NCBI GenBank assembly: GCA_038087875.1
Contig: CM075994.1
Span: 9,550,001-9,614,000, forward strand
Direction: 5' to 3'
DNA: 64,000 nt
From: Malacoraja senta
Lineage: Eukaryota
Shown here piece after piece: positions 9,372 through 64,000 of this stretch (positions are counted from its first letter, which is position 1; each line of letters begins with the position of its first letter). The position numbers were made by a program, and so were the translations under genes. Below the pieces are notes generated by a model that saw nothing but the letters and a program-made list of their open reading frames with translations, was not told where the DNA came from and did not search any database.

Positions 9372-11512
9372 ATGAATTGCCTTGTGGTCCTGGTAGCTGG
9401 TCTCATTCTCAGTGCCTCTCCGGGTAAGGAAATATAACTATTTTGTTGTCCTCTAGTTTAACTGTGGAAAGGCATTTTAGATTCTCAAGTGGGATTGGAA
9501 TTCTTGGTTAAACTTTAAGCTGTGTGTTCGTTCACATGTAGAGAGTTTGTTACTGAATATGGAGTTAGTTATTGTCAAGTCCAGAGTGTTTTATTGTTAT
9601 ATATGTCCCAGATAGAAGGAACGGTGACGTTTCAGGTCGAGACCCTTCCTTCTCTCCAGAGATGCTGCCTGTCCCGCTGAGTTACTCCAGCATTTTATGT
9701 CTATGTTCGGTGTAAACCAGCATCTGCAGTTCCTTGCCACACACACTCACACACGCACACACACATATACACACACACACACACGCACACGCACACGCAC
9801 ACACACACACACGCACACATAATCACACACACACACACACACGCACATATGTACACATAATAGTGCAAAAGGCAAAACTATACGTGTATAGGTAGTTTAG
9901 ATACTACTTTGGCAGTGTGTAGGATACTGCTAGTGTACGGGGTGAACACTGGTCGGCACGGACTCGGTGGGCCGAAGGGCCTGTTTAAATGCTTTAAACA
10001 TCTGAGGGCTCCACATCACTGATGTGTAGGAAGGAACTGCAGATGTTGGTTTACACCGACAATAGACACAAAGTGCTGGAGAAACTCAGCGGGACAGGCA
10101 GCATCTCTGGAGAGAAGGAATAGGTGACGTTTCGGGTCGAGACCCTTCTTCAGACTGAGAGTCAGGGGAAAGGGAAATGAGAGAGATAGATGTTGATATG
10201 GAGAGATATTGAACAAGTGAATGAAAGGTATGCAAAAAAGTAAAGATGACAAAGGAAACAGGCCATTGTTAGCTGTGGGCGAGGTGAGAATGAGTTACAG
10301 ACAATGAGATTCGAGAAGACGACTTTCAAACCAGTAGAACCAGTTGGGATTTGGGAGGGTCTCGACCAAAACATCACCTGTACCTCTTCTCCAGAGCGGC
10401 TGCCTGACCCACTGAGTCACTCCAGCATTTTGTGTCGGTATTGTTCTAAGTTCAATGAAAGGAGTTGCTTGTTCTCAGAGCAGCAGCAGAACGAGCTGCA
10501 GGTGTCTCTCACACAACATCCTCTGTTTTGTTCTCAATGTACAGGTAACTGTTTGCAGTGTTACTCCTGCTTAGGATCAACGGAAAGATGCGTGGATAAT
10601 ACTGTTAACTGCTCTGCGGGGGAGCGATGCTTCCTTGTGGTAGCAGAGGCTGGTAAGTACGAAAGAATTTGAGATGCACACCTCTAGTTTAGAGATACAG
10701 CGTGGAAACATACACACACCAACCTTTGTGTGAGAAGGTTACCCCTCAGATTCCTTTTAAATCTTTTCCCCTCACCTTAAACCAATGTCCTCTGGTCCTC
10801 GATTCCACTACTCTGGGCAAGAGACTCTGTGCATCTACCCAATCTATTCCTCTCATGATTTTATACACCTCTATAGGATCACCCCTCATCCTCCTGCGCT
10901 CCAAGGAATAGAGACCCAGCCTGCTCAACCTCACCCTGTAGCTCACACCCTCTAGTCCTGGCAACATCCTCGTAAAGATGTTAAGACAGTACGATTCTGT
11001 GAATAAATAGCTGATTTACTCATAGAAATGTGAAAACTCAGTGGCATTCACACAAAGAGTGGTGGGTGTATGGAACAAGCTGCCAGAGGAGGTAGTTGAG
11101 GCAGGGACTATCACAACGTTTAAGAAACAGTTAGACAGGTACGTCGATCGGACAGGTTTGGGGGATATGGACCAAGCGCTGACAGGTGGGACTAGTGTAG
11201 CTGGGACATGTTGGCCGGTGTGGGCAAGTTGGGCTGAAGGGCCTGTTTCCACGCTGTAACACTCTAAAATGATACATGAACTATGAATATAGAAATTATT
11301 TATCTGACCATTCTGTTTTTCCAGCTGGTGTAAAGGCTTATGCCGCTGGATGTGCCCCCCCTGCTGAATGTAATGTCCAGCAAATTATCCCAGGAGCCAC
11401 AGTCTCTGTCAGCTGTTGTGATACTGACCTCTGCAACGCGAGCGACCAAGTTAAATTATCTCTTCTGCTGTTCCCTGCTCTGGTCTCAGTCTGGTTTGCA
11501 ATATTTATGTGA
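9372..11512 (+). CDS. Ly6/uPAR (three-finger) GPI-anchored protein, copy 1; join(9372..9423,10545..10652,11325..11512), 115 aa
   Basis: GT-AG phase-1 introns give MNCLVVLVAGLILSASPGNC|LQCYSCLGSTERCVDNTVNCSAGERCFLVVAEAAGVKAYAAGCAPPAECNVQQIIPGATVSVSCCDTDLCNASDQVKLSLLLFPALVSVWFAIFM*. It has a signal peptide, LxCxxC start, 10 Cys in the mature domain, CCxxDxCN end, hydrophobic GPI-type tail and the canonical Ly6 exon layout. Confidence 0.93.
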
Positions 11513-12376
11513 AGCAAGTGCATAATAATAATGCACAGTGCAATCTTCTGGGTGCTTTTTGTCTGAAGATCAGGGATAATGAGTCTTAACACTTGATTTC
11601 CAAAAGATGAGCAACTTAATCTAACAGATGTGCAAATCCTTTTCATTCCAAAATCAGTAACCCTCATCCTGGTTCAGGATTAGTTCATCGATGGTGGTTA
11701 GTTCTATGGGTTCTGTAATTCCTCAATCTTCCAATGTACTTTTGTGTTTGTTATTGATTTGAATTATGTTTTGGAGCTGGTTACATATATATACAGCTTC
11801 AGTAACTCCAACAGAAGGCTGTGGAGGCCAAGTGAATTGATATTTTTACCGCAGAGATAGATAGATTCTTGATTAGGACGGGTGTCAGGGGTTATGCGGA
11901 GAAGGTAGGAGAATGGGGTTAGGAGGGAGAGATAGATCAGCCGTGATTGAATGGCGGAGTAGACTTGATGGGCCGATTGGCCTAGTTCTGCTCCTATCAC
12001 CTACTGCATGACCTTATAACACTGTGTTTATGTCAGGAGGCTAGACAAGCATGTTTTGATGGCAGTGCATGGACAACCTCCTTCAAGTTGACAAAGGCAA
12101 AGCTAATACTTTCAAGAGAGAGCTCCTAAAGATAGCGGAGTCAGGGGATATGGGGAGTAGGCAGGAACAGGGAACTGATTGGGGATGATCAGCCATGATC
12201 ACATTGAATGGCGGTGCTGGTTCGAAGGGCCGAATGTCCTATTCCTGCACCTATTGTCTATTGTCTAATACACCATGCTTGATATTTGCAATCTTTTAAT
12301 AATTCAGATAATAATAATAATAATTATTATATAATTTGGAGTGTACCATTACTCTGTTCATCTGTTGCCGCATCTC

Positions 12377-23363: not shown

Positions 23364-24908
23364 ATGAATTACCTTGTGGTCCTGGTAGCTGGTCTCATTC
23401 TCAGTGCCTCTCCGGGTAAGGAAATATAACTATTGTTGTTGTCCTCTACTTTAACTGTGGAAAGGCATTTTAGATTCTCAAGTGGGATTGGAATTCTTGG
23501 TTAAACATTAAGCTGTGTGTTCGTTCACATGTAGAGAGTTTGTTACTGAATATGAAGTTAGTTATTGTCAAGTTTTATTGTTATATGTCCCAGATAGAAG
23601 GAATGGTGACATTTCAGGTCGAGACCCTTCCTTCTCTCCAGAGATGCTGCTTGTCCCACTGAGTTACTCCAGCATTTTATGTCTATCTTCGGTGTCAACC
23701 TGTAGTTCCTTGCCACACACACTCACACACGCACACACACGATCACACACACATATGTACACATGAAACAAACAATAATAGTGCAAAAAAGTAAAACTAT
23801 ACGTGTATAGGTAGCTTAGATACTACTTTGGCAGTGTGTAGGATACTGCTAGTGTACGGGGTGATCACTGGTAGGCACGGACTCGGTGGGCCGAAGGGCC
23901 TGTTTAACTTCTGTAAATATCAAGAGGGCTCTACAGCACTGATGTGTAGGAAGGAACTGCAGATGTTGGTTTACACCAAAAATGGACACAAAGTGCTGGA
24001 GTAACTCAGCGGGACTGGCAGCATCTCTGGAGAGAAGGAATAGTTGACGTTTCGGCTCAAGAAACAGGCGCCACAGAACCAGGGGCCACAATTTAAGAAT
24101 AAGGAATAAGGAGTAAGCCATTTAGAACGGAGACGTGAAAACACTTTTTCTCACAGAGAGTGGTGAGTCTGTGGAATTCTCTGCCTCAGAGTGTGGTGGA
24201 GGCCTGTTCTCTGGATGCTTTCAAGAGAGAGCTAGATAGGGCTCTTAAAAATACCGGAGTCATGGGATATGGGGAGGAGGCAGGTACGGGGTACTGATTG
24301 GGGATGATCAGCCATGATCACATTGAATGGCGGTGCTGGCTCAAAGGGCCGAATGGCCTACTCCTGCACCTATTGTCTATGATCTATTGTCTATTGAGAC
24401 CCTTCTTCAGACTGAGAGTCAGGGGAAAGGGAAACGAGAGATATAGACGTTGATATCGAGAGATATTGAACAAATGAATGAAAGATATGCAAGAAGGAAA
24501 AAATGATAAAGGAAACAGGCCATTGTTAGCTGTGGGCGAGGTGAGAATGAGTTACAGTTAATGAGAGTGGAAAAGACGACTTTCAAACCAGAACAACCAG
24601 TTGGGATTTGGGAGGGTCTCGACCAAAACATCACCTACACTCTTCTCCAGAGCGGCTGCCTGACCCGCTGAGTTACTCCAGCATTTTGTGTCGGTATTGT
24701 TCCACGTTTATTGAATGGAGTTGCTCGTTTTCAGAGCAGCAGCAGAACGAGCTGCAGGTGTCTCTCACACAACCTCATCTGTTTTGTTCTCAATGAACAG
24801 GAAAGTGTTTGCGGTGTTACTCCTGCCAAGCATCAACCGAAAGATGCGTGGATAATACTGTGAACTGCTCTGCAGGGGAGCAATGCTAGCTTGTGGTTCC
24901 AGAGGCTG
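23364..24908 (+). pseudogene. Ly6/uPAR copy 2 pseudogene; exon1 23364..23415, exon2 24801..24908, exon 3 deleted
   Basis: MNYLVVLVAGLILSASP-GKCLRCYSCQASTERCVDNTVNCSAGEQC*LVVPEA has an in-frame TAG at 24887-24889. Intron-2 homology stops at ~25105 and resumes at ~25190 in sequence matching ~13607, so ~2.7 kb including exon 3 is missing. Confidence 0.9.
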
Positions 24909-30282: not shown

Positions 30283-31576
30283 TCCTCACCTCTGCTGACA
30301 CTGGTTCCCTCAACATCCTCATCCTCCTCGACCTGAGTGCAGCCTTCGATACCGTGAACCATAACATCCTGCTTACCAGACTTAAAGACCTTGGCATTGA
30401 AGGTTCTGCACTCAGCTGGCTCCGTTCCTACCTTTCCAACCGATCCCACTTCATCTCTCTCCATAACCACACCTCTGCCACAGCCACTGTCACTCAAGGC
30501 GTTCCCCAAGGCTCCGTTCTTGGTCCCCTCCTCTTCATCATCTACATCCTCCCCCTTGGTCATATACTCCGTCACTTCAACCTGGACTTCCATTGCCATG
30601 CTAATGACACCCAGATCTATCTCAGCACCAAGTCCCCCCACCACCCCCCTCTCTCCCATATCAACTCCTGCCTGTCAGCCATCAAATCTTGGATGCAACT
30701 CAACTTCCTTAAATTAAACAGTAACAAAACAGAATTTCTCCTCATTGGCTCCAAATCAACACTTACCAAAATTAACAACCCCACTCTCACTATTGACGGC
30801 ACCACTGTCTCCCCATCTCCTCAGGCCCGCAACCTTGGCGTGATCTTTGACTCAACCCTCTCCCTTGAGCCTCACATCCGCCATGTTGTCAAAACATCAT
30901 TTTTTCACCTCCGCAACATTGCCAAAATCAGACCCTCTCTCACACCCCCCGCTGCTGAAAGACTCATCCATGCCTTCATCTCCTCCCGACTGGACTACTG
31001 TAACTCTCTTCTCTTTGACATTAATTCCAGCAACATCAACCGACTCCAACTGGTCCAGAATGCAGCCGCCCGACTCATCACCCATACCAAATCCTGGCAC
31101 CACATCACCCCAGTTCTCAAAGAACTTCACTGGCTTCCCATTTCCCACCGGATCATAATCAAAATCCTGGTCCTCACCTACAAAGCCCTCAACCACTTGG
31201 CCCCCCCTTATCTCACTGACCTCCTCTCCCTCTACCAACCCTCACGGTCCCTCAGATCCACATCAGCCGGTCTCCTCTCCATTCCGAAATCCAACCTCTG
31301 CACTTTTGGATACAGAGCCTTCTCCAGGGCAGCTCCCAGGCTCTGGAACTCCCTCCCACAATTGATCCAAAATTCTGAGTCCCTCACCATCCTCCAGTCC
31401 CGCCTCAAGACCCTTCTCTTCACCTCTGCATACCCTTAGTCCCATGTCCCCCTCCCCTTTGCATCTCTGTCTTACTGCTCTATTTTGTTTTGTTTTTGAC
31501 TCTCCATGTAAAGCGACTTTGAGTCCTTGAAAAAAGCGCTATACAAATAAAATGTATTATTATTATTATTATTATT
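30283..31576 (+). mobile_element. 5'-truncated L2 LINE (RT and C-terminal region)
   Basis: ORF 30207..31439 contains LLDLSAAFDTV, GVPQGSVLGP, HANDTQIY (YADD altered) and HITPVLKELHWLP, followed by AATAAA and a (TAT)n tail. The empty site ttccacc|aaggaagt is seen at ~28890-28903. Confidence 0.93.
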
Positions 31577-32004
31577 AAGGAAGTAATCTAGAAATCTGTC
31601 AACTCAACAGCTTCCTGTCTTGTTCTCCTTGCAAGATGACAATAAAGGTTGATTTGATTTGATTTGATTTGATTTAAGAAAGAACTGCAGATGCTGGAGA
31701 AATCGAAGGCAGACAAAAATGCTGGAGAAACTCAGCGGGTGAGGCAGCATCTATGGAGTGATGGAATAGGTGACGTTTCAGACTCCTTCTTCTTCTGCTG
31801 TTCACACACTACTCACACAGTCCCAGTTCTAGTTCAGTTCATTCATCTGCAATTCAAGTTCAAGTTCAAGTTCAAGTGAGTTTATTGTCATGTGTCCCTG
31901 ATAGGACAATGAAATTCTTGCTTTCCTTCAGCACAACAGAACATAGTAGGCATTTTTTCCTGTTCTCTCTCTTTCCCTCGAAGCTCAGCTGTTCAAATCC
32001 AAAG

Positions 32005-32386
32005 ATGAATTACCTTGTGGTCCTGGTAGCTGGTCTCAGTCTCAGTGTCTCTCCGGGTAAGGAAATATAACTATTGTTGTTGTCCTCTAGTTTAACTGTG
32101 GAAAGGCATTTTAGATTCTCAAGTGGGATTGGAATTCTTGGTTAAACATTAAGCTGTGTGTTCGTTCACATGTAGAGAGTTTGTTACTGAATATGGAGTT
32201 AGTTATTGTCAAGTCCAGAGTGTTTTATTGTTATACATCCCAGATAGAAGGAATGGTGACGTTGCACGTCGAGACCCTTCCTTCTCTCCAGAGATTCTGC
32301 CTGTCCCGCTGAGTTACTCCAGCATTTTACGTCTGTCTTCGGTGTAAACCAGCATCTGCAGTTCCTTGCCACAAACACTCAGACAT

Positions 32387-32472
<86 letters not shown>

Positions 32473-32482
32473 TCACACACGA

Positions 32483-32562
<80 letters not shown>

Positions 32563-34724
32563 TCACACACGATCACACACACACACACACACACACGCAC
32601 ATATGTACACATGAAACAAACAATAATAGTGCAAGAAAGCCAAAACTATACATGTATAGGTAGTTTAGATACTACTTCGGCAGTGTGTAGGATAGTGCTA
32701 GTGTACAGGGTGATCACTGGTTGGCGCGTACTCAGTGGGCTGAAGGGCCTGTTTAATAGCTTTAAACATCAGAGGGCTCTACAGCACTGATGTGTAGGAA
32801 GGAACTGCAGATGTTGATTTACACCGACATAGAAACATAGAAAATAGGTGCAGGAGTAGGCCATTCGGCCCGTCGATATGATCATGGCTGATCATCCAAC
32901 TCAGTATCCCATCCCTGCCTTCTCTCCATACCCCCTGATCCCTTTAGCCACAAGGGCCACATCTAAATCCCTCTTAAATATAGCCAATAGACACAAAGTG
33001 CTGGAGTAACTCAGCGGGAAGGCAACATCTCTGGAGAGAAGATATACTTGACGTTTCGGCTCCAGATCCAGGGGCCACAGAACCAGGGGCCACAGAACCA
33101 GGGGCCACAGTTTAAGAAAAAGGAATAAGGAGTAAGCCATTTAGAACGGAGACGAGGAAACACTTTTTCTCACAGAGAGTGGTGAGTCTGTGGAATTCTC
33201 TGCCTCAGAGGGCGGTGGAGGCCAGTTGTCTGGATGCTTTCAAGAGAGAGCTAGATAGGGCTCTTAAAAATAGCGGAGTCAGGGGATATGGGGAGAAGGC
33301 ATGAACGGGGTACTGATTGGGGATGATCAGCCATGATCACATTGAATGGCGGTGCTGGCTCGAAGGGCCAAATGGCTGACTCCTGCACCTATTGTCTACT
33401 GTCTATTGTCTATTGAGACCCTTCTTCAGACTGAGAGTCAGGGGAAAGGAAACAAGGGAAATAGACGGTGATATCGAGAGATATTGAACAAATGAATGAA
33501 AGATATGCAAGAAGGAAAAGACTCGAGAAGACCACTTTTAAACCAGTACAACCAGTTGGGATTTGGGAGGGTCTCGACCAAAACATCACCTGTATCTCTT
33601 CTCCAGAGCGGCTGCCTGACCCGCTGAGTTACTCCAGCATTTTGTGTCGGTATTGTTCTATGTTCATTGAAAGGAGTTGCTCGTTTTCAGAGCAGCGGCA
33701 GAACGAGCTGCAGGTGTCTCTCACACAAAATCCTCTGTTTTGTTCTCAATGTACAGGTAACTGTTTGCAGTGTTACTCCTGCTTAGGATCAACGGAAAGA
33801 TGCGTGGATAATACTGTTAACTGCTCTGCGGGGGAGCGATGCTACCTAGTGGTAGCAGAGGCTGGTAAGTATGAATGAATTTGAGATGCACACCTCTAGT
33901 TTAGAGATACAGCTTGTTCCATACACCCACCACCCTTTGTGTGAAAAGGTTACCCCTCAGATTCCTATTAAATCTTTTCCCCCTCACCTTAATCCTATGT
34001 CCTCTGGTCCTCGATTCCACTACTCTGGGCAAGAGACTCTGTGCATCTACCCAATCTATTCCTCTCATGATTTTATACACCTCTATAGGATCACTCCTCA
34101 TCCTCCTGCGCTCCAAGGAATAGAGACCCAGCCTGCTCAACCTCTCCCTCTAGCTCACACCCTCTAGTCCTGGCAACATCCTCGTAAAGATGGTAAGACT
34201 GTACGATTCTGTGAATAAATAGCTGATTTACTCATAGAAATGTGAAAACTCAGTGGCATTCACACAAAGGGTGGTGGGTGTATGGAACAAGCTGCCAGAG
34301 GAGGTGGTTGAGGCAGGGACTATCGCAACGTTTAAGAAACAGTTAGACAGGTACATGGATCGGACAGGTTTGGGGGATATGGACCAAGCGCTGGCAGGTG
34401 GGACTAGTGTAGCTGGGACATGTTGGCCAGTGTGGGCAAGTTGGGCTGAAGGGCCTGTATCCACGCTGTATCACTCTAAAATGATACATGAACTATGAAT
34501 ATAGCAATTATTTATCTGACCATTCTGTTTTTCCAGCTGGTGCAAAGGGTTACAGCGCTGGATGTTTTCCCCCTGCTGAATGTGATGTCCAGCAAAATAT
34601 CCCAGGAGCCACAGTCTCTATCAGCTGTTGTGATACTGACCTCTGCAACGCGAGTGACCAAGTTAAATTATCTCTTCTGCTGTTCCCTGCTCTGGTCTCA
34701 GTCTGGTTTGCAATATTTATGTGA
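32005..34724 (+). CDS. Ly6/uPAR (three-finger) GPI-anchored protein, copy 3; join(32005..32056,33757..33864,34537..34724), 115 aa
   Basis: MNYLVVLVAGLSLSVSPGNC|LQCYSCLGSTERCVDNTVNCSAGERCYLVVAEAAGAKGYSAGCFPPAECDVQQNIPGATVSISCCDTDLCNASDQVKLSLLLFPALVSVWFAIFM*; all splice sites GT-AG, 10 Cys, intact frame. Confidence 0.92.
32387..32600. repeat. (CA)n microsatellite in Ly6 intron 1
   Basis: Long CA run. Equivalent runs at ~9738-9845, ~23715-23750 and ~56416-56615 differ in length. Confidence 0.95.
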
Positions 34725-42851: not shown

Positions 42852-44817
42852 TAGAAACATAGAAACTTAGAAAATAGGTGCAGGAGTAGGCCATTCGGCC
42901 CTTCGAGCCTGCACCGCCATTCAATATGATCATGCCTGATCATCCAAACTCAGTATCCTGTACCTGCCTTCTCTCCATGCCCCCTGATCCCTTTAGCCAC
43001 AAGGGCCACATCTAACTCCCTCTTAAATATAGCCAATGAACTGGCCTCAACTACCTTCTGTGGCAGAGAATTCCACAGATTCACCACTCTCTGTGTGAAA
43101 AATGTTTTTCTCATCTCGGTCCTAAAAGACTTCCCCCTTAGCCTGAAACTGTGACCCCCTTGTCCTGGACTTCCCCAACATCGGGAAACATCTTCCTGCA
43201 TCTAGCCTGTCCAACCCCTTAAGAATTTTGAAAGTTTCTATAAGATCCCCTCTCAATCTTCTAAATTCTAGCGAGTACAAGCCGAGTCTATCCAGTCTTT
43301 CTTCATATGAAAGTCCTAACATCCCAGGAATCAGTCTGGTGAACCTTCGCTGTACTCCCTCTATGGCAAGAATGTCTTTCCTCTCATTTGGAGATCAAAA
43401 CTGTACGCAATACTCCAGGTGTGGTCTCACCAAGACCCTGTACAACTGCAGTAGAACCTCCCTGCTCCTATACTCAAATCCTTTTGCTATTAATGGTAAC
43501 ATACCATTCGCTTTCTTCACTGCCTGCTGCACCTGCATGCCTACTTTCAATGACTGGTGTACCATGACACCCAGGTCTCGTTGCACCTTCCCTTTTCCTA
43601 ATCGGCCACCATTCAGATAAGAGTCTACTTTCCTGTTTTTGCCACCAAAGTGGATAACCTCACATTTATCCACATTATACTGCATCTGCCATGCATTTGC
43701 CCACTCACCCAGCCTATCCAAGTCACCTTGCATCCTCCTAGCATCCTCCTCACAGCTAACTCTGCCCCCCAGCTTTGTGTCATCCGCAAACTTGGAGATG
43801 TTGCATTCAATTCCCTCGTCCAAATCATTAATATATATTGTAAATAGCTGGGGTCCCAGCACTGAGCCTTGAGGTACCCCACTAGTCACTGCCTGCCATT
43901 CTGAAAAGGACCCGTTTACTCCTACTCTTTGCTTCCTGTTTGCCAGCCAGTTCTCTATCCACATCAATACTGAACCCCCAATACCGTGTGCTTTAAGTTT
44001 GTATACTAATCTCTTATGTGGGACCTTGTCGAAAGCCTTCTGAAAGTCCAGATATAACAGATCCGTTGGTTCTCCCTTATCCACTCTACTAGTTACATCC
44101 TCGAAAAATTCTATAAGATTCGTCAGACGATTTACCTTTCGTAAATCCATGCTGACTTTGTCCAATGATTTCACCACTTTCCAAATGTGCTGCTATCCCA
44201 TCTTTAATAACTGACTCTAGGAGTTTCCCCACTACCGATGTTAGACTAACTGGTCTGTAATTCCCCGTTTTCTCTCTCCCTCCCTTTTTAATAAGTGGGG
44301 TTACATTAGCTACCCTCCAATCCTAAGGAACTACTCCAGAATCTAAGGAGTTTTGAAAAATTATCACTAATGCATCCACTATTTCTGGGGCTACTTCCTT
44401 AAGTACTCTGGGATGCAGCCTATCTGGCCCTGGGGATTTATCGGCCTTTAATCCATTCAATTTACCTAACACCACTTCCCGGCTAACCTGGATTTCACTC
44501 AGTTCCTCCATCTCATTTGACCCCCGGTCCCCTGCTATTTCCGGCAGATTATTTATGTCTTCCTTAGTGAAGACAGAACCAAAGTAGTTATTCAATTGGT
44601 CTGCCAAGTCCTTGTTCCCCATGATTAATTCACCTGTTTCTGACTGCAAGGGACCTACATTTGTTTTAACTAATCTTTTTCTCTTCACATATCTATAAAA
44701 ACTTTTGCAGTCAGTTTTTATGTTCCCTGCCAGTTTTCTTTCATAATCTATTTTCCCTTTCCTAATTAAGCCTTTTGTCCTCCTCTGCTGGGCTCTGAAT
44801 TTCTCCCAGCCCTCTGG
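42852..44817 (-). mobile_element. 5'-truncated CR1 LINE (ORF2 RT), nested in an older CR1-like fragment
   Basis: ORFs 44323..44994, 43395..44177, 43122..43322 and 42950..43201 carry KSPGPD, YLDFQKAFDKVPH, GVPQGSVLGP, KFADDTK and RPHLEYCVQF; (agaaacat)n tail at ~42852-42875. Confidence 0.95.
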
Positions 44818-51087: not shown

Positions 51088-54000
51088 TATTTTATTTTAT
51101 TTATTTTATTTATTTTATTTATTTTATTTATTTTATTTATTTTATTTATTTTATTTATTTTATTTATTTTATTTATTTTATTCTTTATTTCGAACAGAAT
51201 AACAGAATAAAAAGCAAGTGTGAAACAGCATACAAAAAAACAAAACAAGAATATTTATAAAGTGTCATAAACAATATCTATAAATAAATGAAATCGCATG
51301 TGTCCGAAAAGGAGCAGGAAGAAGCCAAAGCTTATTAATTCCCACCACTTATTCAACTGCTTATAATTATCTTATACAAATTTAGCAGCAATATGTACAC
51401 CATATGTACACCAGCTATATGTACACCAAATTATTTACATTTATACACTAATCAAATATTTACAAAGCCATACAAAAAAAGAAAGAAAAAAAGAAAAAAG
51501 AAAAGAAAAAACCCTCATATACTATACAGTATCTCTTAGTCATATATACAACCCATCACCCTATAATCACCCTTCCCAATACAATCAGTATAACAAATAT
51601 CCCACTCACAATCACCTATCCCAATATCCTTTTAAAAAAGTGTTTTTGTACATCTTCTTGAACTGAATTATGTTTGTGCTAAGTTGTATCTCCTGTTCCA
51701 GACCATTCCACAAATTCACCCCACAGATTGCTATGCACATACTTTTAAGAGTTGTTCGGACATTGAGTTTTTTCAAATTATGTTCCCCTCTCAAATTATA
51801 CCCACCCTGTCTTTCCATAAACAGTTTTTGTATATTTCTTGGAAGTAAATTATTTCTTGCTTTGTACATGATTTGCGCAGTCTTAAATTTAACCAGATCG
51901 GTGAACTTCAGTGTATGTGACTTTAAGAATAATAAATTGGTATGTTCAAGATATCCAATTCTTATTGCTCTTTTTTGTAATGTGCATAACGGCTGTAGGT
52001 TGGTTTTGTAGGTGTTACCCCATATCTCCACCCAGTAACTCAGATATGGCAATATGAGTGTATTGTACAGAGTATGTAATGATTTGTGGTCCAGAATGTG
52101 TCTTGATTTTCCCAATATTGATATAGACTTTGCCAGTTTTGCTTTGACGTGGTTTATATGTGGTTTCCAGCAGATTTTGTAGTCTAAGATCACACCAAGA
52201 AATTTATTTTCATATACTCTTTCTATACTTATGTTATCTATTTTCAATTGTACTTGCGGGTTTGTTTTATGTTTTCCAAATAGCATTATCTTTGTTTTGC
52301 TTAAATTTAGAGACAATTTGTTGACATCAAACCACTGTTTTAATTTATTCATTTCTGATGTGATGACCTCCAAAAGCTGCTGCAAATTGCAAAAAATATT
52401 CGTATCATCGGCAAATAGAATCAATTTCAGTATATTTGATACTTTGCATATGTCGTTAATTTACATTATGAAAAGCTTTGGACCTAACACAGACCCTTGC
52501 GGTACTCCACAAGTTATGTTCATGTAAGTTGATTTATGTTCACCTATTTCTACAAATTGTTGCCTGTTTCTTAAATAGCTTCTCACTCAATCCAATCCAA
52601 CCCCTCTGATGCCATACCTATCCAGTTTCATGAGTAAAATGGCGTGATTTACGGTATCAAATGCTCTTTTAAAGTCTATGAATATTCCCACTGTAAGTTT
52701 TTTATTATCTATGCAATTTGTGAATTCCTCGACTAGTTCCATTAGTGCCATAGATGTTGATCTGTCTGTCCGGAATCCATATTGACTGTCGACCAAAAGC
52801 TTATGTTTTTCAATGAAATTGTCAAGTCTTTCTGTAAAACGTTTTTCAAGGATCTTGGAGAATTGGGAGAGTAAAGAAACAGGCCTGTAATTTGTGAAAT
52901 GATGTCTATCCCCAGTTTTATATAATAGTATTAGTTTTGCTATTTTCATTTTGTTCGGAAATTTACCTGATTGAAAAGACAAGTTACAGATATGAGTTAA
53001 TGGTTCTGCAATTTCTTCAATAACGTTTTTTTATTATAGATACATAGATACATAGAAAATAGGTGCAGGAGTAGGCCATTCGGCCCTTCAAGCCTGCACC
53101 GCCATTCAATATGATCATGGCTGATCATCCAACTCAGTATCCCGTACCTGCCTTCTCTCCATACCCCCTGATCCCTTTAGCCACAAGGGCCACATCTAAC
53201 TCCCTCTTAAATATAGCCAATGAACTGGCCTCAACTACCCCCTGTGGCAGAGAGTTCCAGAGATTCACCACTCTCTGTGTGAAAAAGTTTTTCCTCATCT
53301 CGGTCTTAAAGGATTTCCCCCTTATCCTTAAGCTGTGACCCCTTGTCCTGGACTTCCCCAACATCGGGAACAATCTTCCTGCATCTAGCCTGTCCAACCC
53401 CATAAAAATGTTGTACGTTTCTATAAGATCCCCTCTCAATCTCCTAAATTCTAGCGAGTATAAGCCAAGTCTATCCAGTCTTTCTTCATATGAAAGTCCT
53501 GACATCCCAGGAATCAGTCTGGTGAACCTTCTCTGCACTCCCTCTATGGCTATAATGTCCTTCCTCAGATTTGGAGACCAAAACTGTACGCAATACTCCA
53601 GGTGTGGTCTCACCAAGACCCTGTACAACTGCAGTAGAACCTCCCTGCTCCTATACTCAAATTCTCTTGCTATGAAAGCCAACATACCATTCGCTTTCTT
53701 CACTGCCTGCTGCACCTGCATGCCTACTTTCAATGACTGGTGTACCATGACACCCAGGTCTCGCTGCATCTCCCCATTTCCTAATCGGCCACCATTTAGA
53801 TAATAGTCTGCCTTCCCGTTTTTGCCACCAAAGTGGATAATCATATCAATATAATTCCAATCAGTAGAGGATTTGCTTTTACATTTTCTTACAGTGTCTA
53901 TGATTACTTTTCCTTCGACTGCTCTAAGGAAGATAGAGCTAGTATTTCTATCCCAAAGATCAGTATCTGCCCCTTCTTTTGTTTCTGGGTCATTAATTTT

Positions 54001-54893
54001 TTCTGCCAAATCTGGTCCCACATTTACAAAGAATTTGTTAAAACCATTAACTGCATCATCCATATTATTCATTGTCTTGTGTTCCTCAATAAAATACTCA
54101 GGGTAGCCTGTATTTTTTGATCCATTTCTAATAATACTATTTAGCACGTTCCATAAACCTTTCATATTATTTTTATTATTCTCTAACATTTTATTATAGT
54201 ATTCTTTCTTACATATCCTCATAATAGTGGTTAATTTATTCTTATATTTTTTATATTTATTTTCTGCTTCAGTAGTTCGATATTTTATGAATTGTCTATA
54301 TAGTGTGTTTTTTCTTTTTGCATGCATTTTTTTAAACCCTTAGTGATCCATGGACTATTTGTCTGTTTTTGTCTATCACTATATTGTTTCACAGGACAGT
54401 TTTTGTCATAAAGTGATTTAAAAATATTTAGAAATCCATTGTATGCTTTGTCGACATCTTCACCCTCATATACTACCCTCCAATTCTGTTTCAGTAATTC
54501 ATTCTTAAATGCATTTATGTTTTCTTCGGTTCTCACCCTTTTATATTTGAAATGACTGGTGTTCTTAGGTTTCCTATAACTACAGTGATAAACAATAAAA
54601 ACAGGTAAATGGTCACTGATGTCACTGTATAATAGTCCGCTTACTGTATTGCTTTCCATAATGTTTGTGAATATGTTGTCTATTAATGTGGCACAATGAG
54701 AAGTAATTCTACTAGGTCTGGTTATTCTAGGATATAAACCCATACTGTACATAGTATTGATGAATTCTTCTGTCATTTTATGCTTTTTTGGATTCAACAG
54801 GTCAATATTGTAATCCCCACAGATGAACATAATCTTTTGTAATGATTTTGTAATATTTTCCATCCAATCTTTAAATATTTCAATACTGGAGCT
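51088..54893 (-). mobile_element. AT-rich CR1-group (L2/Crack-like) LINE, APE + RT, interrupted by CR1
   Basis: ICGDYNIDLL, TLIDNIF, ISDHLPVF (APE); NYRPVSLL, FIDFKRAFDTVNH, LFADDTNIF (RT); (TTTATTTAT)n tail at ~51088-51190; several stops and frameshifts. Confidence 0.85.
53037..53838 (-). mobile_element. CR1 LINE 3' fragment nested in the preceding LINE
   Basis: IHFGGKNGKADYYLNG...RPHLEYCVQFWSP...KAGTGY, nearly identical to 42852-43655. Confidence 0.93.
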
Positions 54894-55240
54894 CTGTATA
54901 AGGCCATACTGGGAAAATGTTAATGCAGTTGTAAAAAATATCTTGGGTTATAAAATCCCAAATACCTGCTCTGTGATGTATCTGGGGCATATTAAAGATT
55001 TTGTAAAAAATAGAAGATACATATTTGATTAAAGTTTTGCTTGCAGCAAGTAAGAAGGCCATTACCAGACAGTGGCTTAATGAAAAAAGTCCAAAACAGG
55101 AACAGTGGTTAGAAATTGTGCGAGACATCTTTAATATGGAAAAATTGACATATTCCTTGAGAGTCAAGGAGAATTCATTTGAGAAGATCTGGGAAAAATG
55201 GACCGTTTATTTGAGCCACGACACCAATTAGATAAATGCC
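54894..55240 (+). mobile_element. L1-clade LINE ORF2 C-terminal fragment
   Basis: IRPYWENVNAVVKNILG and LLAASKKAITRQWL...W...MEKLTY...FEKIWEKW resemble the fish L1 ORF2 C-terminus. Confidence 0.7.
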
Positions 55241-56106
55241 GAGCTAGATATGGGAAGCTTGTAATTCGTGTAATTCGTGCTCAGTTGTAATACCGAACTC
55301 GCTTATACACAGAGGGGCGTAAGAGATATTTAGTATTGTTTCTTTATTGATAGTTTTCTGTGTTTTATTTGTCTTTGTTTAACAAATAATTTTTTGTGCT
55401 CTTCAAGAGAGAATTAGATTTAGCTATTGGGGCTAACGGAATCAAGGGATTTGGGGAAAAAGCAGGAACGGCAACAAATCTACCGCCACGTCCCCTAAAA
55501 TCTGGAGAAGGGACCTCACCGGAAACATCTCCAGTCTACGTTCTCCAGAGATGTTGCCTGACCACCTGAGTTACTCCACAGATGTTGCCTGCCCACCTGA
55601 GTTACTCCACAGATGTTGCCTGCCCACCTGAGTTACTCCACAGATCTTGCCTGCCCACCTGAGTTACTCCGGAACTTTGTGGGGGATGTTCGTTACCAGC
55701 ACCTGCAGATCCTTGTAATTACTTCCTTGATTCCTTCCCTCCACAGATGACTGGTTTGGGAATTTCAGCATTTCGTGCGTATCTCTTTCGTAAATACCGT
55801 CCCAATATCATCTCTTCCAGTAATTCAGGTTTTCTCTATCATGTAATCATCAGTAATTCAATCTTTTCCTTGCCTCCTCCCTCTACCTCTATCACACCAT
55901 CCCATAGTCAAAATCACAAGGGATTTTCAATAAAGGCTCAGAGTGCTGGCGTAACTCGGTGAGTCGGGCAGCATCTCTGGAGAACACGGACTGGTGACGT
56001 TTCCAGTTGGGATCCTTCTACAGATTTCAGGGAATTTGAAGACTTCTGTTTGAAGTTTTTCCTGTTCTCTCTCTTGCCTTCGAAGCTCAGCTGTTCAAAT
56101 TCAAAG

Positions 56107-56425
56107 ATGAATTGCCTTGTGGTCCTGGTAGCTGGTCTCATTCTCAGTGCCTCTCCGGGTAAGGAAATATAACTATTTTGTTGTCCTCCAGTTTAACTGT
56201 GGAAAGGCATTTTAGATTCTCAAGTGGGATTAAGCTGTGTGTTCGTTCACATGTAGAGAGTTTGTTACTGAATATGGAGTTAGTTATTGTCAAGTCAAGA
56301 GTGTTTTATTGTTATATGTCCCAGATAGAAGGAATGGTGACATTTCAGGTCGAGACCCTTCCTTCTCTCCAGAGATGCTGCCTGTCCCGCTGAGTTGCTC
56401 CAGAATGTTATGTCTACACACACAC

Positions 56426-56511
<86 letters not shown>

Positions 56512-56523
56512 ACACACACACAA

Positions 56524-56599
<76 letters not shown>

Positions 56600-59500
56600 A
56601 CACACACACACACATATGTACACATGAAACAAACAATAATAGTGCACAAAGGCAAAACTATACGTGTATAGGTAGTTTAGATACTACTTTGGCAGTGTGT
56701 AGGATAGTGTTAGTGTACGGGGTGATCACTGGTCCGCGCGGGCTCGGTCGGCCGAATGGCCTGTTTACATGCTGTAAACATCAGAGGGCTCTTCAGCACT
56801 GAGGTGTAGGAAGGAACTGCAGATGTTGGTTTACACCAAAAATGGACACAAAGTGCTTGAGTAACTCAGCGGGACAGGCAGCATCTCTGGAGAGAAGGAA
56901 TGGATGATGTTTCGGGTCGAGGCCCTTCTTCAGACTGAGGGTCAGGCGAAAGAGAAGCGAGAGAGATAGACAGTGATATCGAGAGATATTCAACAAATGA
57001 ATGAAAGATATGCAAAAAGGAAAAGATGATGAAGGAAACAGACCATTGGTAGCTGTGGGCGCGGTGAGAACGAGTTACAGACAATGAGACTCGAGAAGAC
57101 GTCTTTCAAACCAGTACGGTAGACAAAATTGCTGGAGAAACACAGCGTGTAAGTCAGCATCTATGGAGCCATGGAAATAGGCAACGTTTCTGGCCGAAAC
57201 CCTTCTTCAGACTGGTTCTTCAAACCAGTACAACCAGCTGGGATTTGGGAGGGTCTCGAACAAAACATCACCTGTACCACTTCTCCAGAGCGGTTGCCTG
57301 ACCCGCTGAGTTTTTTTTGTGTCGGTATTGTTCTATGTTTAGTGAAAGGAGTTGTTCGTTCTCAGAGCAGCGCAGAACGAGCTGCAGGTGTCTCTCACAC
57401 AACCTCCTCTGTTTTGTTCTCAATGTACAGGTAACTGTTTGCAGTGTTACTACTGCTTAATATCCAATGAAAGATGCGTGGATAATACTGTTAACTGCTC
57501 TGCGGGGGAGCAATGTTACCTTGGGGTTGCAGAGGCTGGTAAGTACGAACCAATTTGAGATGCATACCTCTAGTTTAGAGATACAGATTCAAAGAAACAT
57601 AGAAACATAGAAAATAGGTGCAGGAGTAGGCCATTCGGCCCTTCGAGCCTGCACTGCCATTCAATATGATCATGGCTGATCATCCAACTCAGTATCCTGT
57701 ACCTGCCTTCTCTCCATACCCCCTGATCCCTTTAGCCACAAGGGCCACATCTAACTCCCTCTTAAATATAGCCAATTGAACTGGCCTCAACTCCCTTCTG
57801 TGGCAGAGAATTCCAGAGATTCACCACTCTCTGTGTGAAAAATGTTTTTCTCATCTCGGTCCTAAAGGATTTCCCCTTTATCCTTAAACTGTGACCCCTT
57901 GTCCTGGACTTCCCCAACATCGGAACAATCTTCCTGCATCTACCCTGTCCAACCCTTAAGAATTTTGTAAGTTTCTATAAGATCCCCCCTCAATCTTCTA
58001 AATTCTACCGAGTACAAGCCGAGTCTATCCAGTCTTTCTTAATATGAAAGTCCTGACATCCCAGGAATCAGTCTGGTGAACCTTCTCTGTACTCCCTCTA
58101 TGGCAAGAATGTCTTTCCTCAGATTAGGAGACCAAAACTGTACGCAATACTCCAGGCGTGGTCTCACCAAGACCCTGTACAACTGCAGTAGAACCTCCCT
58201 GCTCCTGTACTCAAATCCTTTTGCTATGAATGCTAACATACCATTCGCATTCTTCCTATTACATCTTTTGCCCTTCACCTTAAACCTATGTCCTCTGGTC
58301 CTCGATTCCCCCTACTCTGGGCAGGAGGCTCTGTGCGTCTATCCAATCTATTCCTCTCATGATTTTATACACCTCTATAAGATTAACCCTCATCCTCCTG
58401 TGCCCTCTCTGTGCCTCTGTGTCCCACTGTGTGCCTCCGTGTCCCTCTCTGTGCCACTGTGTCCCTCTATGTGCCCCTGTGTCCCTCTCTGTGCTTCTGT
58501 GTCCCTCTCTGTGCTTCTGTGTCCCTCTCTGTGCCCTGTGTCCCTCTCTGTGCCCCTGTGTCCCTCTCTTACTTCTGTGTCCCTCTCTTGCTTCTGTATC
58601 CCTCTCTTGCTTCTGTGTCCCTCTCTCTCTGCCCCCCTATCTCTCTAGCCGCGCCTGCAAGTTGGGGGCTATACATGAGTGGATAGGGCGGGGGATGGAG
58701 TAAAAGTAGTGGATGAATAATATTAATATAATTTCAATGGGGGATGTTAGTGTGTGGGGGGGGGGCTGATTGGTTAGTGTGTGTGTGTGTGGGGTGTATA
58801 GTGTGTGTGTGGGGGGTGGTTATTGTGTGTGTGTGTGTGGGGGGGTGGTTAGTGTGTGTGTGTGGGGGTGGTTAGTGTGTGTGTGTGGGGGTGGTTAGTG
58901 TGTGTGGGGGTGTATAGTGTGTGTGGGGGGTGTATAGTGTGTGTATGGGGGGGTGGTTACTGTGTGTGTGTGGGTTGTAGTTAGTGTGTAGGGGGTGGTT
59001 ACTGTGTGTGGGAGGTTGGTTAGTGTGTGTGTGGGGGGTGTATAGTGTGTGTGTGGGGAGTGGTTACTGTGTGTGTGTGGGGGTGGTTAGTGTGTGTGTG
59101 GTGGGGTGGTTAATGTGTGTGGGGGATGGTTAGTGTGTGTGTGGGGGATGGTCAGTGTGTGTGTGTGGGGGGTGGTTAGTGTGTGTGTGCGGGGTGGGTA
59201 GTGTGTGTGTGGGGGTGGTTAGTGTGTGTGTGGGGGGTGGTTAGTGTGTGTGTGCGGGGTGGGTAGTGTGTGTGGGGGGTGGTGGTTAGTGTGTGTGTGT
59301 GGGGGGGTGGTTAGTGTGTGTGTGGGGGGTGGGTAGTGTGTGCGTGGGGGGTGGTTAGTGTGTGTGTGGGGGGTGGTTAGTGTGTGTGGGGGGGTGGGTA
59401 GTGTGTGCGTGGGGGGTGGTTAGTGTGTGTGTGGGGGGTGGTTAGTGTGTGTGTGCGGGGTGGGTAGTGTGTGTGTGGGGGGGGGGGGTTAGTCTGTGTG

Positions 59501-59804
59501 TGACACCGCAACCACACGTAGAGGGGATGAGACCCAACGGGTCCCACTTGGTCTAGTGAACTATAAACACAGAAATTATTTAACTATCCATTCTGTTTTT
59601 CCAGGAGGTTTTACGGTTTACGAAGCTGGATGTGTTCCCTCTACTGCTTGTAATATCCAGCAAACTATTGATGGTGTCACATTCTCTATCCACTGTTCTC
59701 TACCCTCATCCAGGTTCAGGATTAGTTCATCGATGGTGGTTAGTTCTATGGGTTCTGTAATTCCTCAATCTTCCAATGTACTTTTTTCTTTGTTATTGAT
59801 TTGA
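56107..59804 (+). CDS. Ly6/uPAR copy 4 with truncated LU domain and novel C-terminus (possible pseudogene); join(56107..56158,57431..57538,59605..59804), 119 aa
   Basis: MNCLVVLVAGLILSASPGNC|LQCYYCLISNERCVDNTVNCSAGEQCYLGVAEAGGFTVYEAGCVPSTACNIQQTIDGVTFSIHCSLPSSRFRISSSMVVSSMGSVIPQSSNVLFSLLLI*. Splice sites are intact; a deletion after 59697 removes Cys9, Cys10 and the GPI tail. Confidence 0.75.
57590..58255 (-). mobile_element. CR1 LINE 3' fragment in intron 2 of Ly6 copy 4
   Basis: NANGMLAFIAKGFEYRSREVLLQLY...; (agaaacat)n tail; absent from intron 2 of copies 1-3. Confidence 0.9.
58400..59556 (+). mobile_element. Helitron-like 3' part with CT-rich and GT-rich minisatellites in intron 2 of Ly6 copy 4
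   Basis: Ends gagacccaacgggtcccacttggtCTAG|tgaactat; the paralogous empty site in copy 1 is a|tgaactat (~11276), an A|T target. Confidence 0.7.
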
Positions 59805-61649
59805 ATTATGTTTTGGAGCTGGTTACATATATATATACAGCTTCAGTAACTCCAACAGAAGGCTGTGGAGGCCAGGTGAATTGATATTTTTACCGCAGAG
59901 ATAGATAGATTCTTGATTAGGGCGGGTGTCAGAGGTTATGGGGAGAAGGCAGGAGAATGGGGTTAGGAGGGAGAGATAGATCAGCCATGATTGAGTGGCG
60001 GAGTAGACTTGATGGGCCGAATGGCCTAGTTCTGCTCCTATCACCTACTGCATGACCTTATAACACTGTGTTTATCTCAGGGGGCTAGACAAGCATGTTA
60101 TGATGGCAGCGCTTGGACAACCTCCTTCAAGTTGACGAAGGCAATGCCAATACTTTCAAGAGAGAGCTAGATAGGGCTCCTAAAGATAGCGGAGTCAGGG
60201 GATATGGGGAGAAGGCAGGAACGGGGTACTGATTGGCGGTGATAAGCCATGATCACGTTGAATGTCGGTGCTGGTTCGAAGGGCCGAATGGCCTACTCCT
60301 GCACCTATTGTCTATTGTCTAATACACCATGCTTGATACTTGCAATATTTTAATAATTTGTATAATAATAATAATCATATAATTTGGAGTGTGTACCATG
60401 ACTGTTCATCTGTTGCCGCATCTCAATAAAATACAGATTATCAAAAGAAAATGTGAGCGTATTCCTTTTTTTATGTTCCAGGAGCAGGATTAAGCCATTC
60501 GGCCCATCAAGTCTACTGCACCCTTCAATCCTGCCCGATCTATCTTTCCCTCTCAACCCCATTCTCCCCATAACCCCTGACACTTGTACTATGGAAGAAT
60601 CTGTCAAAGCCTCTATCAAATTCTGGAAAACAATTTTATAAACTGCCTCACGTTATAATTACTACACTGTATAATTCTGCGGCACGGTGGTGCAGCGGTA
60701 GAGTTGATGCCCCGCGGCGTCAGAGACCCGGGTTCCATCCTGACCACGGGTGTCCGGCGCTGCAAGCGCTGTAAGGCAGCATCTCTGCCGCTGCGCCACC
60801 CTGCCGCCCATTGCGCGTCCGTGTCCGTCTCTTTATTTTGGCTCCGTAGCAAACTGCTGTGAGGAAAAGCCCAGAGCAGAGTTGGTGATAGACCCTCAGC
60901 AACTTTTAACAGCGGTCCCTATTATTGCCACGTTTAAGAAAGAATGGAAATGCTGGAAAAATCGAAGGTAGACAAAAATGCTGGAGAAACTCAGCGGGTG
61001 AGGCAGCATCTATGGAGCGAAGGAATAGGTGACGCATTAACCAACCTGATCTCCCGGTGGCCCAGCACTTCAACTCCCCCTCCCATTCCCAATCTGACCT
61101 TTCTGTCCTGGGCCTCCTCCATGGCCAGAGTGAGTCCCACCGCAAATTGGAGGAGCAGCACCTCATAGTTCGCTTGGGTAGTTTACACCCAGCGGTATGA
61201 ACATTGACCTCCAATTTCAGGTAGTCATTGCTTTCTCCCTCCTTCCCAGCTCTCCCACAGCCTACTGTCTCCGCCTCTTCCTTTCTTCTTCCCCTCCCCC
61301 ACCCCACCCCACCCCAACATCAGTCTGAAGGGTCTCGACCCGAAACGTCACGTATTCCTTCGCTCTATAGATGCTGCCTCACACGCTGAGTATCTCCAGC
61401 ATTTTTGTCTAACTTCCTTATCTCTGTCTCCCTCGCCCCTGACTCTCAGTCTGAAGAAGGGTCTCGATCCGTTCCTTCTCTCCAGAGATGCTGCCTGTCC
61501 CGCTGAGTTTCTCCAGCATTTTTGTCTACCTTGTATCATTGCCACTTTCATTTCACTGCACATCTTGTATGTGTATGTGACAAATAAACTTGACTTATCC
61601 GTCGGGACAGAATGTGCAAACTGAAACTCGTGGTCACTTCAATCAAGCA

Positions 61650-61655
61650 TTTATT
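61650..61655 (-). terminator. Candidate CSNK2B polyadenylation signal
   Basis: AATAAA on the minus strand at the end of a largely non-TE tract ~1.8 kb downstream of the CSNK2B stop; duplicated at 36834-36839. Confidence 0.5.
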
Positions 61656-63461
61656 CAGAAATACACATTAGTAACAATCCCAGAACCGATTAGACAAGTT
61701 CTTTAAAAAAAAAACACGGGCAGCTTTTTACCAAGTCAACTTCCTTTATAGAATACGTACAATACAGTTCATGACCTTAACTTACCTGAGGGGAAAGGGC
61801 AGGTGAAAGGAACCAAAGTATTCTTCATTCCGAGCAGGGTGGTGGAATAAATGAGTCACGTCTGGTCAATGCTATAGGATTCTCAATGTCGTTGCTAAAT
61901 GGTCGGGATCTCTTCGAAATTGGTAGCAACTCTCTCACATGTACGGATTGCAGAGAGAAAATAAAGATGGGGGGGGGAACGGCAGTGGGAAGTTGGGACA
62001 ACCGAGTGTAGATGTTGTTCACCCTTTCAACTGGTTCATCACTTTGGGTCTTTGGTACCAATCCGTTGTCAAAACTAAATGGCGGTTCAATGGTACGTCG
62101 CTGGCCTGTCGTTCAGAAGCCCACTGACGTGATACTCTTCACCCTAAACCGCTGCCTACACTGCGGGACTGGAAACCAGACTTCTGACAACACCGGGATG
62201 GGCTGATCCCATCCAACGGACGCAGAGTGCTGGAGTAACTCAGCGGGTCAGGCAGCATCTGTGGAGAACATGAATAGGTGACGTTTCAGAGTGCTGGAGA
62301 AACTCAGCGGGTCAGGCAGCATCTGTGGAGAACATGGATAGGTGACGTTTCACAGAGTGCTGGAGTAACTCAGCGGGTCAGGCAGCATCTGTGGAGAACA
62401 TGGATAGGTGACGTTTCAGAGTGCTGGAGTAACTCAGCGGGTCAGGCAGCATCTGTGGAGATTGTGGGTAGGTGACGTTTCACAGAGTGCTGGAGTAACT
62501 CAGCGGGTCAGGCAGCATCTGTGGAGAACATGGATAGGTGACGTTTCAGAGTGCTGGAGTAACTCAGCGGGTCAGGCAGCATCTGTGGAGAACGTGGGTA
62601 GATGACGTTTCGGGCCGTGAACTATCTTCAAGGGTCCCGTCCCGAGCTGGCCCCCATCTATGTTCTCCAGAGATGCTGCCTGACACCCCCCAGTTACTCC
62701 AGCACTCTGTCTTTCTTTGGTGTAAACTAGCACCTGCAGTTCCTTCGTTATTACACCTTGCAGGCCTGCGACTGCCCTCAAATCCTCGAGACGGAGACAG
62801 AGAGCGCCATGGGTGACCGGGACTCAGATAAAGAACTCCCAGAAGTGAACAGGGTTGAACAGAGAATAATCCACCTTAGACAAGACACAAAATGCTGGAG
62901 TAAACTCAGCGGCTCAGGCAGCATCTCTGGAGAGAGGGGACTTTTGTGTCTGAAGAAGGGCCTCGACCCGAAACGTCACCCGTTCCCTCTCCAGAGATGC
63001 CGCCTGTCCCGCTGAGTTACTCCAGCATTTTGAGCCTATCGATGGTGTAAACCAACATCTGCAGTTCCTTCCCAAGACAGATAATTCACCCTGCCATGTC
63101 TTCACAAACACACACACACAAGCGGTTCATTTTTGTGTTGATGAAACGTTTTAAAGTTTGTTTTTGTTCCCCCACTGAAAAGAAATCCATTGGCACCAAC
63201 TTCAGTTCACGACTGTGAATGGGGACAGGGGAGTGGAAGCGGCAATAACAGAATAATGTGGTTTTGGAGGGGGTGGGGAGGGGGGGTTAGGGAGGGAGAG
63301 AGGGAGAGAGGGGAGGAGAAGGCAAAGAGTTTCTTTTGTTAAAGTGAACACTGTTTACAGCCTCGTGGCATATCATCTGTCTGCGGGCCCGCTGTTAAAC
63401 AGACATCTTTTCTTGAGGAGTTGCCCGGGTCTCGCTCTCTCTCTCGCTCTCTCTTCTTTCT

Positions 63462-63552
63462 CTAACGGATAGTCTTGACTGGGCTTTTGAAGTTGCTGGC
63501 AGCTTGGAGCTGGAGTTGGTAGGCCATGGGGTGTATCTTGAAGCCGTAGAGT
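63462..63552 (-). CDS. CSNK2B: Casein kinase II subunit beta, last coding exon (upstream exons lie beyond the right edge)
   Basis: After a polypyrimidine tract and AG (63553-63554), a 91-nt phase-2 exon encodes (R)[29 protein letters not shown], which matches the vertebrate CK2-beta C-terminus as I recall it. Confidence 0.95.
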
Positions 63553-64000
63553 CTGGAGAGAAGGGGGGTAAAAGGGGGAAAGAGATGGAGAGAGTTAACG
63601 GCGATGGAGCGGAGGACAGGAGCGAGAAGGTGGAGGAGGCAGAGACCCGGCTTCGATCCCGACTATGGGCGCTGTCTGTACGGAGTTTGCGCGTTCTACC
63701 CGTGACCTGCGTGGGTTTTCTCCGGGAGCTCCGGTTTCCTCCCACACTCCTTAAACGCACTAGGTTTGTAGACTAATTGGCTTCGGTAAAAATTGTAAAT
63801 CCCACACACCCTAGTATGTGTAGGATAATGTTAAGTATGCGGGAATCGCTGGTCAGTGCAGACTCGGTGGGCCGAAGGGCCTGTTTCCGCGCTGTATCTC
63901 TAATCTAAACTAACTTAAGCTTCCTATCTGAAGATACGTGATCTCCTGGTTGCTCAGCACTTCAACTCCCCCTCCCATTCCCACACTGACCTTTGTCCTG

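Follow-up and report, generated by a model that had tools for sequence, protein, structure and literature searches.

In LU (Ly6/uPAR) proteins the disulfides follow the order 1-5, 2-3, 4-6, 7-8 and 9-10, the pairing on which the first-pass annotation of this locus had relied and which agrees with the literature, and the Asn after Cys10 is considered invariant (PMC6600238). The disulfides named as lost in the same source are 2-3, often, and 7-8, rarely, with 9-10 not among them (PMC6600238). Regarding single substitutions, CD59 C64Y destabilises folding, and C77R, C94S and C99Y of SLURP1 impair both folding and secretion (PMC6600238). The CD59 mutant is present at the cell surface, but it is recognised there by none of seven antibodies and affords no protection; its authors had expected only a loosened loop (PMC6244018). 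At the level of gene families, loss of the anchor is a repeated event among Ly6 proteins that preceded the snake three-finger toxins, and the clusters are rich in orphan exons and pseudogenes (PMC10421932). In the literature that we searched, which is thin on subscription papers, no natural case is described in which the 9-10 disulfide, or a C-terminal one, is missing, and we found no paper on a Ly6 expansion in skates.

Against this background, the gene cluster presented here creates a puzzle: How should one regard a gene copy, copy 4, that has lost both cysteines of the 9-10 pair together with the following Asn and the GPI signal, and whose reading frame continues into the former 3' UTR? The best answer is that copy 4 is probably a recently disabled, loss-of-function member of a skate LU cluster with fast birth-and-death turnover.

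The LU gene cluster and its relatives

Judged from sequence comparison, the window (the whole stretch of 64,000 nucleotides that was analysed) is a tandem cluster of single-domain LU genes of the Ly6/uPAR, CD59- or PSCA-like kind, presumably from a skate. Self-comparison reveals numerous interspersed repeats and four units related to one another, each unit opening with a 52-base signal-peptide exon at the first position listed for it in table 1. In intact form an LU copy has three coding exons, one for the signal peptide and two for the LU domain, with phase-1 introns; copies 1 and 3 encode 115 residues with ten LU cysteines (including Cys85 and Cys90), Asn91 and an 18-residue hydrophobic end. 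Two of the four copies, 2 and 4, are damaged. In copy 2 (23364-25105), exon 2 is interrupted by a TAG codon, and the alignment with copy 1 skips from 10849 to 13607, a loss of about 2.7 kb that takes away exon 3 together with the 3' UTR.

Table 1. Features of the LU cluster and anatomy of copy 4
Feature	Position	Strand	Remarks
Copy 1, intact LU gene	9372..11512	+	exons 9372-9423, 10545-10652, 11325-11512; 115 aa, 10 LU Cys, GPI-type tail
Copy 1 stretch without counterpart in copy 4	11418..11659	+	Cys9, Cys10, Asn, GPI signal, stop, 147 bases of UTR
Copy 2, pseudogene	23364..24908	+	stop codon in exon 2, exon 3 absent
RVT_1 reverse-transcriptase ORF fragment, between gene copies	30093-31436	+	
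Copy 3, intact reading frame	32005..34724	+	exons 32005-32056, 33757-33864, 34537-34724
RVT_1 reverse-transcriptase ORF fragment, between gene copies	43398-44192	-	
RVT_1 reverse-transcriptase ORF fragment, between gene copies	51615-54947	-	
Copy 4 coding exon 1, for the signal peptide	56107..56158	+	identical to copy 1; phase-1 GT donor
Copy 4 second coding exon	57431..57538	+	encodes the signal-peptide end, LU Cys1-5 and a single N-glycosylation sequon; flanking AG and GT intact
Interspersed repeat within copy 4 intron 2	57593..58255	.	94-95% like 42853-43518 and 53038-53701
Simple-repeat-rich stretch, copy 4 intron 2	58404..59556	.	absent from copies 1 and 3
Copy 4 last exon, retained part	59605..59697	+	LU Cys6-8; 66/93 bases identical to copy 1 or 3
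Likely junction-insert template (7-mer)	59682..59688	+	different in copies 1 and 3
Junction insert of four bases, in place of 242 bp	59698..59701	+	
Former 3' UTR, now in frame	59702..59804	+	Ser-rich tail, 8 hydrophobic end residues, TGA
First AATAAA after the stop, candidate poly(A) signal	60425..60430	+	same place in copies 1 and 3

The reverse-transcriptase fragments between the gene copies are probably LINE remnants. A 200-N assembly gap lies at 29185-29384 between two stretches of about 900 bases that are 95% alike (27998-28895 and 29385-30282), a duplication possibly reflecting a contig overlap or a haplotype switch. In copy 3 (31500-32056), similarity to the other copies starts only about 50 bases before the ATG, the upstream region common to copies 1, 2 and 4 being replaced and adjoining the first of the reverse-transcriptase fragments; its signal peptide has three private changes, one of them Ile to Ser in the hydrophobic core. 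Although its frame is intact, copy 3 may be silent.

The last exon of copy 1 matches 18 skate proteins of 115-116 residues (one of 113) with 62-93% identity, which belong to Leucoraja erinacea, Amblyraja radiata and Rhinoraja longicauda and have CD59-like or PSCA-like source names that are automatic and do not amount to a statement of orthology. A profile of these proteins adds three more from skates (P0001-P0021 in all) and then only distant LU proteins of fish, frogs and primates. Both P0001 and P0011 pass the Pfam cut-offs for PF00021 (UPAR_LY6), PF25152 and PF00087, the families including CD59 and Toxin_TOLIP. Single exons of copies 1, 3 and 4 lie below the Pfam cut-off, the last exon of copy 4 giving no family match in this search; the placement of copy 4 in the LU family comes from DNA alignment to the other copies. 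In a representative search the nearest relatives that are not of skate type are P0066, P0067 and P0071, one of which has two LU domains; they are possible outgroups for the skate expansion.

Along its length (55278-63997) copy 4 has a mosaic make-up: its likeness to copy 1 is 97-98% near exon 1, falls to 85-88% where intron 2 ends and to 71% within exon 3, and is followed by more than 4 kb that are 96-97% like copy 3. At the junction, the likeness to copies 1 and 3 rises from 71% in the retained 5' part of exon 3 to 98-99% in the DNA behind the junction. The junction could have joined two different copies, the diagnostic sites fitting either way. Trees of exons 2 and 3 are mostly unresolved, and for this reason exon shuffling is not claimed; exon 3 of copy 4 groups with P0018 of Leucoraja at 92/76. 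We discarded the idea of a false duplication of copy 3 as the source of copy 4, on the grounds that exon 3 is 71% alike in the two, intron 2 is different and no gap lies between them.

The deletion junction and its polarity

Alignment of the last exons of copies 1, 3 and 4, together with slicing of the sequence, confirms that 242 bp present in copy 1 are replaced by four bases in copy 4, and with in-silico splicing it also confirms the loss of Cys9, Cys10, the Asn and the GPI signal, as the first-pass annotation had claimed. The repeat that it had noticed 14 bp upstream of the junction is equally real: The 7-mer at 59696-59702 repeats that at 59682-59688. Its further suggestion of a templated insertion gains support, for such a repeat has a 1-2% probability by chance (of the 144 four-base inserts that these flanks allow, 3 yield so long a repeat, as do 1.1% of 4000 simulated random junctions) and the template is specific to copy 4. 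Since the 7-mer template exists only there, the insert appears to have been copied from copy 4's own exon after its divergence, and the two lines of evidence combined indicate that the scar is probably a real product of end joining.

Inserts templated by the flanks, accompanied by one-base homology, are the signature of polymerase-theta end-joining (TMEJ), and deletions in the polymerase-theta class of C. elegans typically span 50-200 bp (PMC4032859). Copy 4 resembles TMEJ events in combining a deletion, a short flank-copied insert and minimal, one-base junction homology, but its 242 bp are slightly more than the typical class. Its repair pathway was presumably polymerase-theta-type end joining, even if the enzyme lies beyond the reach of sequence. 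On its right side the deletion ends within a TAA that is in frame in the former UTR (59700-59704), and therefore the tail is as long as the frame allows.

Four sequencing runs of the 23 listed were compared, and all their contigs apparently come from relatives (83-91% identity in exon 3); the listing names no RNA dataset, a result that does not bear on expression. The joined, deleted form is seen in none of the four, as would fit an assembly or single-molecule artefact, or else an allele private to the sequenced animal, but runs from relatives are silent on this organism. An artefact would also be in line with the finding that no listed run contained half of 21 sampled words (best share 0.29), and with the assembly gap and many repeats of the window; however, there is no gap within 30 kb of the junction, no shared flanking homology to drive a misjoin, and the copy-specific template of the insert speaks for a genuine event. 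We consider an artefact or private allele very improbable, and a private allele would fit the explanation of a disabled copy too.

What the relatives do show is the direction of the change. In each of the four runs a contig reaches 59702 from intact UTR. X1 and X2, with two contigs each, have a retained exon that is 83-84% identical to that of copy 4, compared with 71% for copies 1 and 3, and these contigs continue past 59697 into intact Cys9...Cys10-Asn sequence. Because these closer paralogs keep an intact tail, the deletion is the derived state, on which the relatives' data bear the initial reading out. The closest contig, X3 (133 of 146 letters), ends at 59690, short of the junction, and is uninformative on the deletion. 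A contig of X7 runs from a copy-4-like exon 3 into the end of an exon 2: Its loose end at 59613 agrees with the end of copy 4 exon 2 in 20 of 22 letters (by eye), and thus a copy-4-type gene appears to be spliced in a relative. This contig does not link up again with the sequence that follows the junction.

As for age, the 3' flank of copy 4 has 17 private changes in 1029 bases (1.65%), and in simulation a neutral copy at this divergence shows no further lesion with a 52% chance, so that a clean frame neither supports nor refutes function.

Folding without the 9-10 pair and the new tail

Spliced in silico from its three exons, copy 4 encodes 119 residues, with an intact ATG and both introns GT-AG. 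Its first 20 residues equal those of copy 1, by which identity they are taken as signal peptide, and its upstream region is 97% like that of copy 1 over 300 bases. The LU cysteines lie at positions 23, 26, 33, 40, 46, 63, 69 and 84, after which come 35 new residues. An extra Cys at position 20, where other members have Ser, Ala or Thr, aligns with the cleavage site of CD59 and would therefore probably leave with the signal peptide. Compared with copy 1, 16 of 31 residues differ in exon 3 and all remaining cysteines are kept; the retention of every cysteine while exon 3 diverged suggests that copy 4 was functional for most of its history.

The product lacks two canonical features of LU domains, the ten paired cysteines, which are present in copies 1 and 3, and the Asn directly after Cys10. 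The first-pass annotation had argued that the eight remaining cysteines could still all pair: The even count is confirmed, but an even number does not show that the protein folds. The motif CC-x(3-6)-CN is kept in 97 of the 98 homologs of up to 150 residues that were counted among 212 fetched proteins, a count biased by the search profile, which itself contains the motif; the exception is P0021, a frameshifted model of Amblyraja. Among 20 intact skate proteins, conservation is 95% from Cys9 to the end, 82% in the signal peptide and 54% in the mature part, and the 3' UTRs are 95-99% alike in the relatives' runs compared. Conserved ends around a variable mature part suggest diversifying selection on exposed loops; in exon 3, pN and pS are similar for every pair of copies, and hence dN/dS cannot separate relaxed from diversifying selection.

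A structural model of the intact relative P0018, of modest confidence (pLDDT 63.5), has six strands, the last of which spans residues 79-86 and ends at Cys8-Cys9; a Foldseek search with it places LU-type proteins on top, none with E below 0.001. Going by this model, copy 4 would still encode almost the whole beta sheet. The mutants of human proteins that hit the 9-10 pair, which we take to include SLURP1 C94 and C99, misfold; they leave a free thiol, a situation that copy 4 avoids in having lost both cysteines. Folding of the eight-cysteine form is nonetheless not the outcome to be expected.

The frame does stay open for 35 more codons through the old UTR, Ser-rich and with a hydrophobic end, as first noticed, and the UTRs of copies 1 and 3, which are not translated, already have the same open frame and hydrophobic end. 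Over the 103 bases of the tail, copy 4 has one private change (59788), by which a Cys codon has become Ser; such a Cys-removing change has a chance probability of about 4%, the site also varies in X2, and the change may be taken as a weak hint of a functional tail. The last 24 bases of the tail include 16 T, and a T bias gives noncoding frames hydrophobic ends according to work on cytosolic triage (bioRxiv 10.1101/2022.07.20.500724). Considering the first 330 bases of the UTR as re-entry points, 30 give at least 30 residues, 36 give a hydrophobic end and 9 give at least 25 residues plus such an end, the latter thresholds having been set after the tail was seen.

Could this tail re-anchor the protein, serving as a marginal GPI signal with its omega site near S94 or S101 and holding the eight-cysteine domain on a longer Ser-rich stalk? 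Formal omega sites are S88, S94 and S101, the last with Gly at omega+2, 8 polar residues and 8 hydrophobic residues. Such geometry reaches the minimum described for GPI signals, namely a spacer of 8-12 residues and a hydrophobic part of 8-20, and VSG117 left with 7 hydrophobic residues was still partly anchored (PMC12410294). In the same direction, 16 of 95 homolog tails score lower than copy 4 in hydropathy over the last 12 residues, and the longest uncharged runs of these 95 tails span a range that includes the 13 of copy 4. In contrast, the best 12 residues of copy 4 score 1.44 in hydropathy, lower than in any of the 95 homolog tails (minimum 1.57, median 2.4), the terminal hydrophobic run is 8 residues versus 18 in all intact skate copies, and the tail is nearly unchanged UTR. 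Eight hydrophobic residues are also far too short for a transmembrane helix, which led us to reject that form of anchoring. The tail would hence be marginal as a GPI signal, at or below the lower edge, and we give a re-anchored product little chance.

Somewhat less improbable, though still unlikely, is a secreted variant in which four disulfides would hold the three-finger sheet, the end being too short to anchor and leaving a Ser-rich tail. Besides the even number of cysteines, the intact signal exon and splice sites and the conserved upstream region, this reading can appeal to the frequency of anchor loss in the Ly6 family (PMC10421932), to the splicing of a copy-4-like paralog in X7 and to Amblyraja radiata, whose models P0019 and P0020, candidate secreted forms, are anchor-less with 10 cysteines; together with the frameshifted P0021 of this species, they make up the 3 of 21 database skate proteins without a normal tail. 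Yet P0019 and P0020 keep Cys9-Cys10-Asn, as secreted LU proteins do, and PrP left with a short uncleaved end of 7 hydrophobic residues was neither anchored nor secreted, being retained and degraded in the ER (PMC12410294). Moreover, a search for the last exon of copy 4 among longer database proteins, itself a weak one, scored none of 29 candidates. Even taken together, the secreted and re-anchored working forms are unlikely. The initial suggestion that copy 4 makes such a variant rather than being a dead gene is thus weakened, the 9-10 pair and the Asn being the best-kept part of the family and the tail being unselected UTR text.

Fate of copy 4 and comparison with known systems

Returning to the preferred explanation, that of a recently disabled gene, copy 4 would have diverged as a working GPI-anchored gene until polymerase-theta-type end joining repaired a double-strand break, in the course of which the left end was re-primed 14 bases upstream and a few bases were copied before it was joined to the old 3' UTR. 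With its stop in the last exon, the mRNA, if transcribed, would be expected to escape nonsense-mediated decay, and the protein would enter the ER. Without the 9-10 loop and the Asn its fold would be weakened and its short hydrophobic end would be a poor GPI signal, so that the product may mostly be held and degraded, or leak out functionless. Such a disabled copy is in keeping with the deletion of the most conserved region and the change of frame relative to intact paralogs, which are features of pseudogenes, and with the frequency of broken members here (copy 2, Amblyraja P0021). Against it stand the absence of a second lesion, the avoidance of the free thiol of the human mutants, the rarity of comparable re-entry points (9/330) and the Cys-removing change in the tail.

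The boldest alternative would be an expressed and folded LU protein lacking the 9-10 disulfide and the Asn, for which one end-joining step captured UTR as a GPI-bearing stalk or secreted tail, with the change of Cys to Ser in the tail as its first adaptive step; this we regard as a long shot. If copy 4 is dead, it is nothing out of the ordinary, but it captures birth-and-death turnover in the skate Ly6 expansion cleanly, with a neat end-joining scar. If it is alive, it constitutes a natural test of the need for the 9-10 disulfide when both cysteines go together (human mutants lose only one), and a C-terminal targeting signal born from UTR, the type of step that precedes secreted Ly6 proteins.

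Among known systems, the CD59-like and PSCA-like genes of skates are the closest, for they share with copy 4 the plan of three coding exons, a near-identical signal peptide and the cysteine spacing. They differ in that 18 of the 21 proteins have the full CC-x4-CN and an 18-residue GPI-type tail, while two are anchor-less yet keep CC-x4-CN, one is frameshifted and none has the tail of copy 4. Human CD59, PSCA and GPIHBP1, each GPI-anchored with a single LU domain and the best matches of P0001 among solved structures (E about 1e-5), have the 10-cysteine pattern of copies 1 and 3, whereas copy 4 is without Cys9, Cys10, the Asn and the GPI signal. SLURP1/2, PATE and the snake three-finger toxins resemble copy 4 in having lost the anchoring region within birth-and-death clusters, and resemble the whole cluster in their variable mature part and conserved ends. 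The short-chain three-finger toxins with eight cysteines lack the 2-3 disulfide, not 9-10, and our analysis gave no hint that copy 4 is a toxin. In secreted LU proteins the chain stops with the 9-10 loop or shortly behind it, whereas copy 4 is cut before the loop and has UTR text added. Copy 4 can thus be assigned neither to the SLURP-like nor to the GPI-anchored class, but on the alignments with its neighbours it is a member of the LU family by descent.
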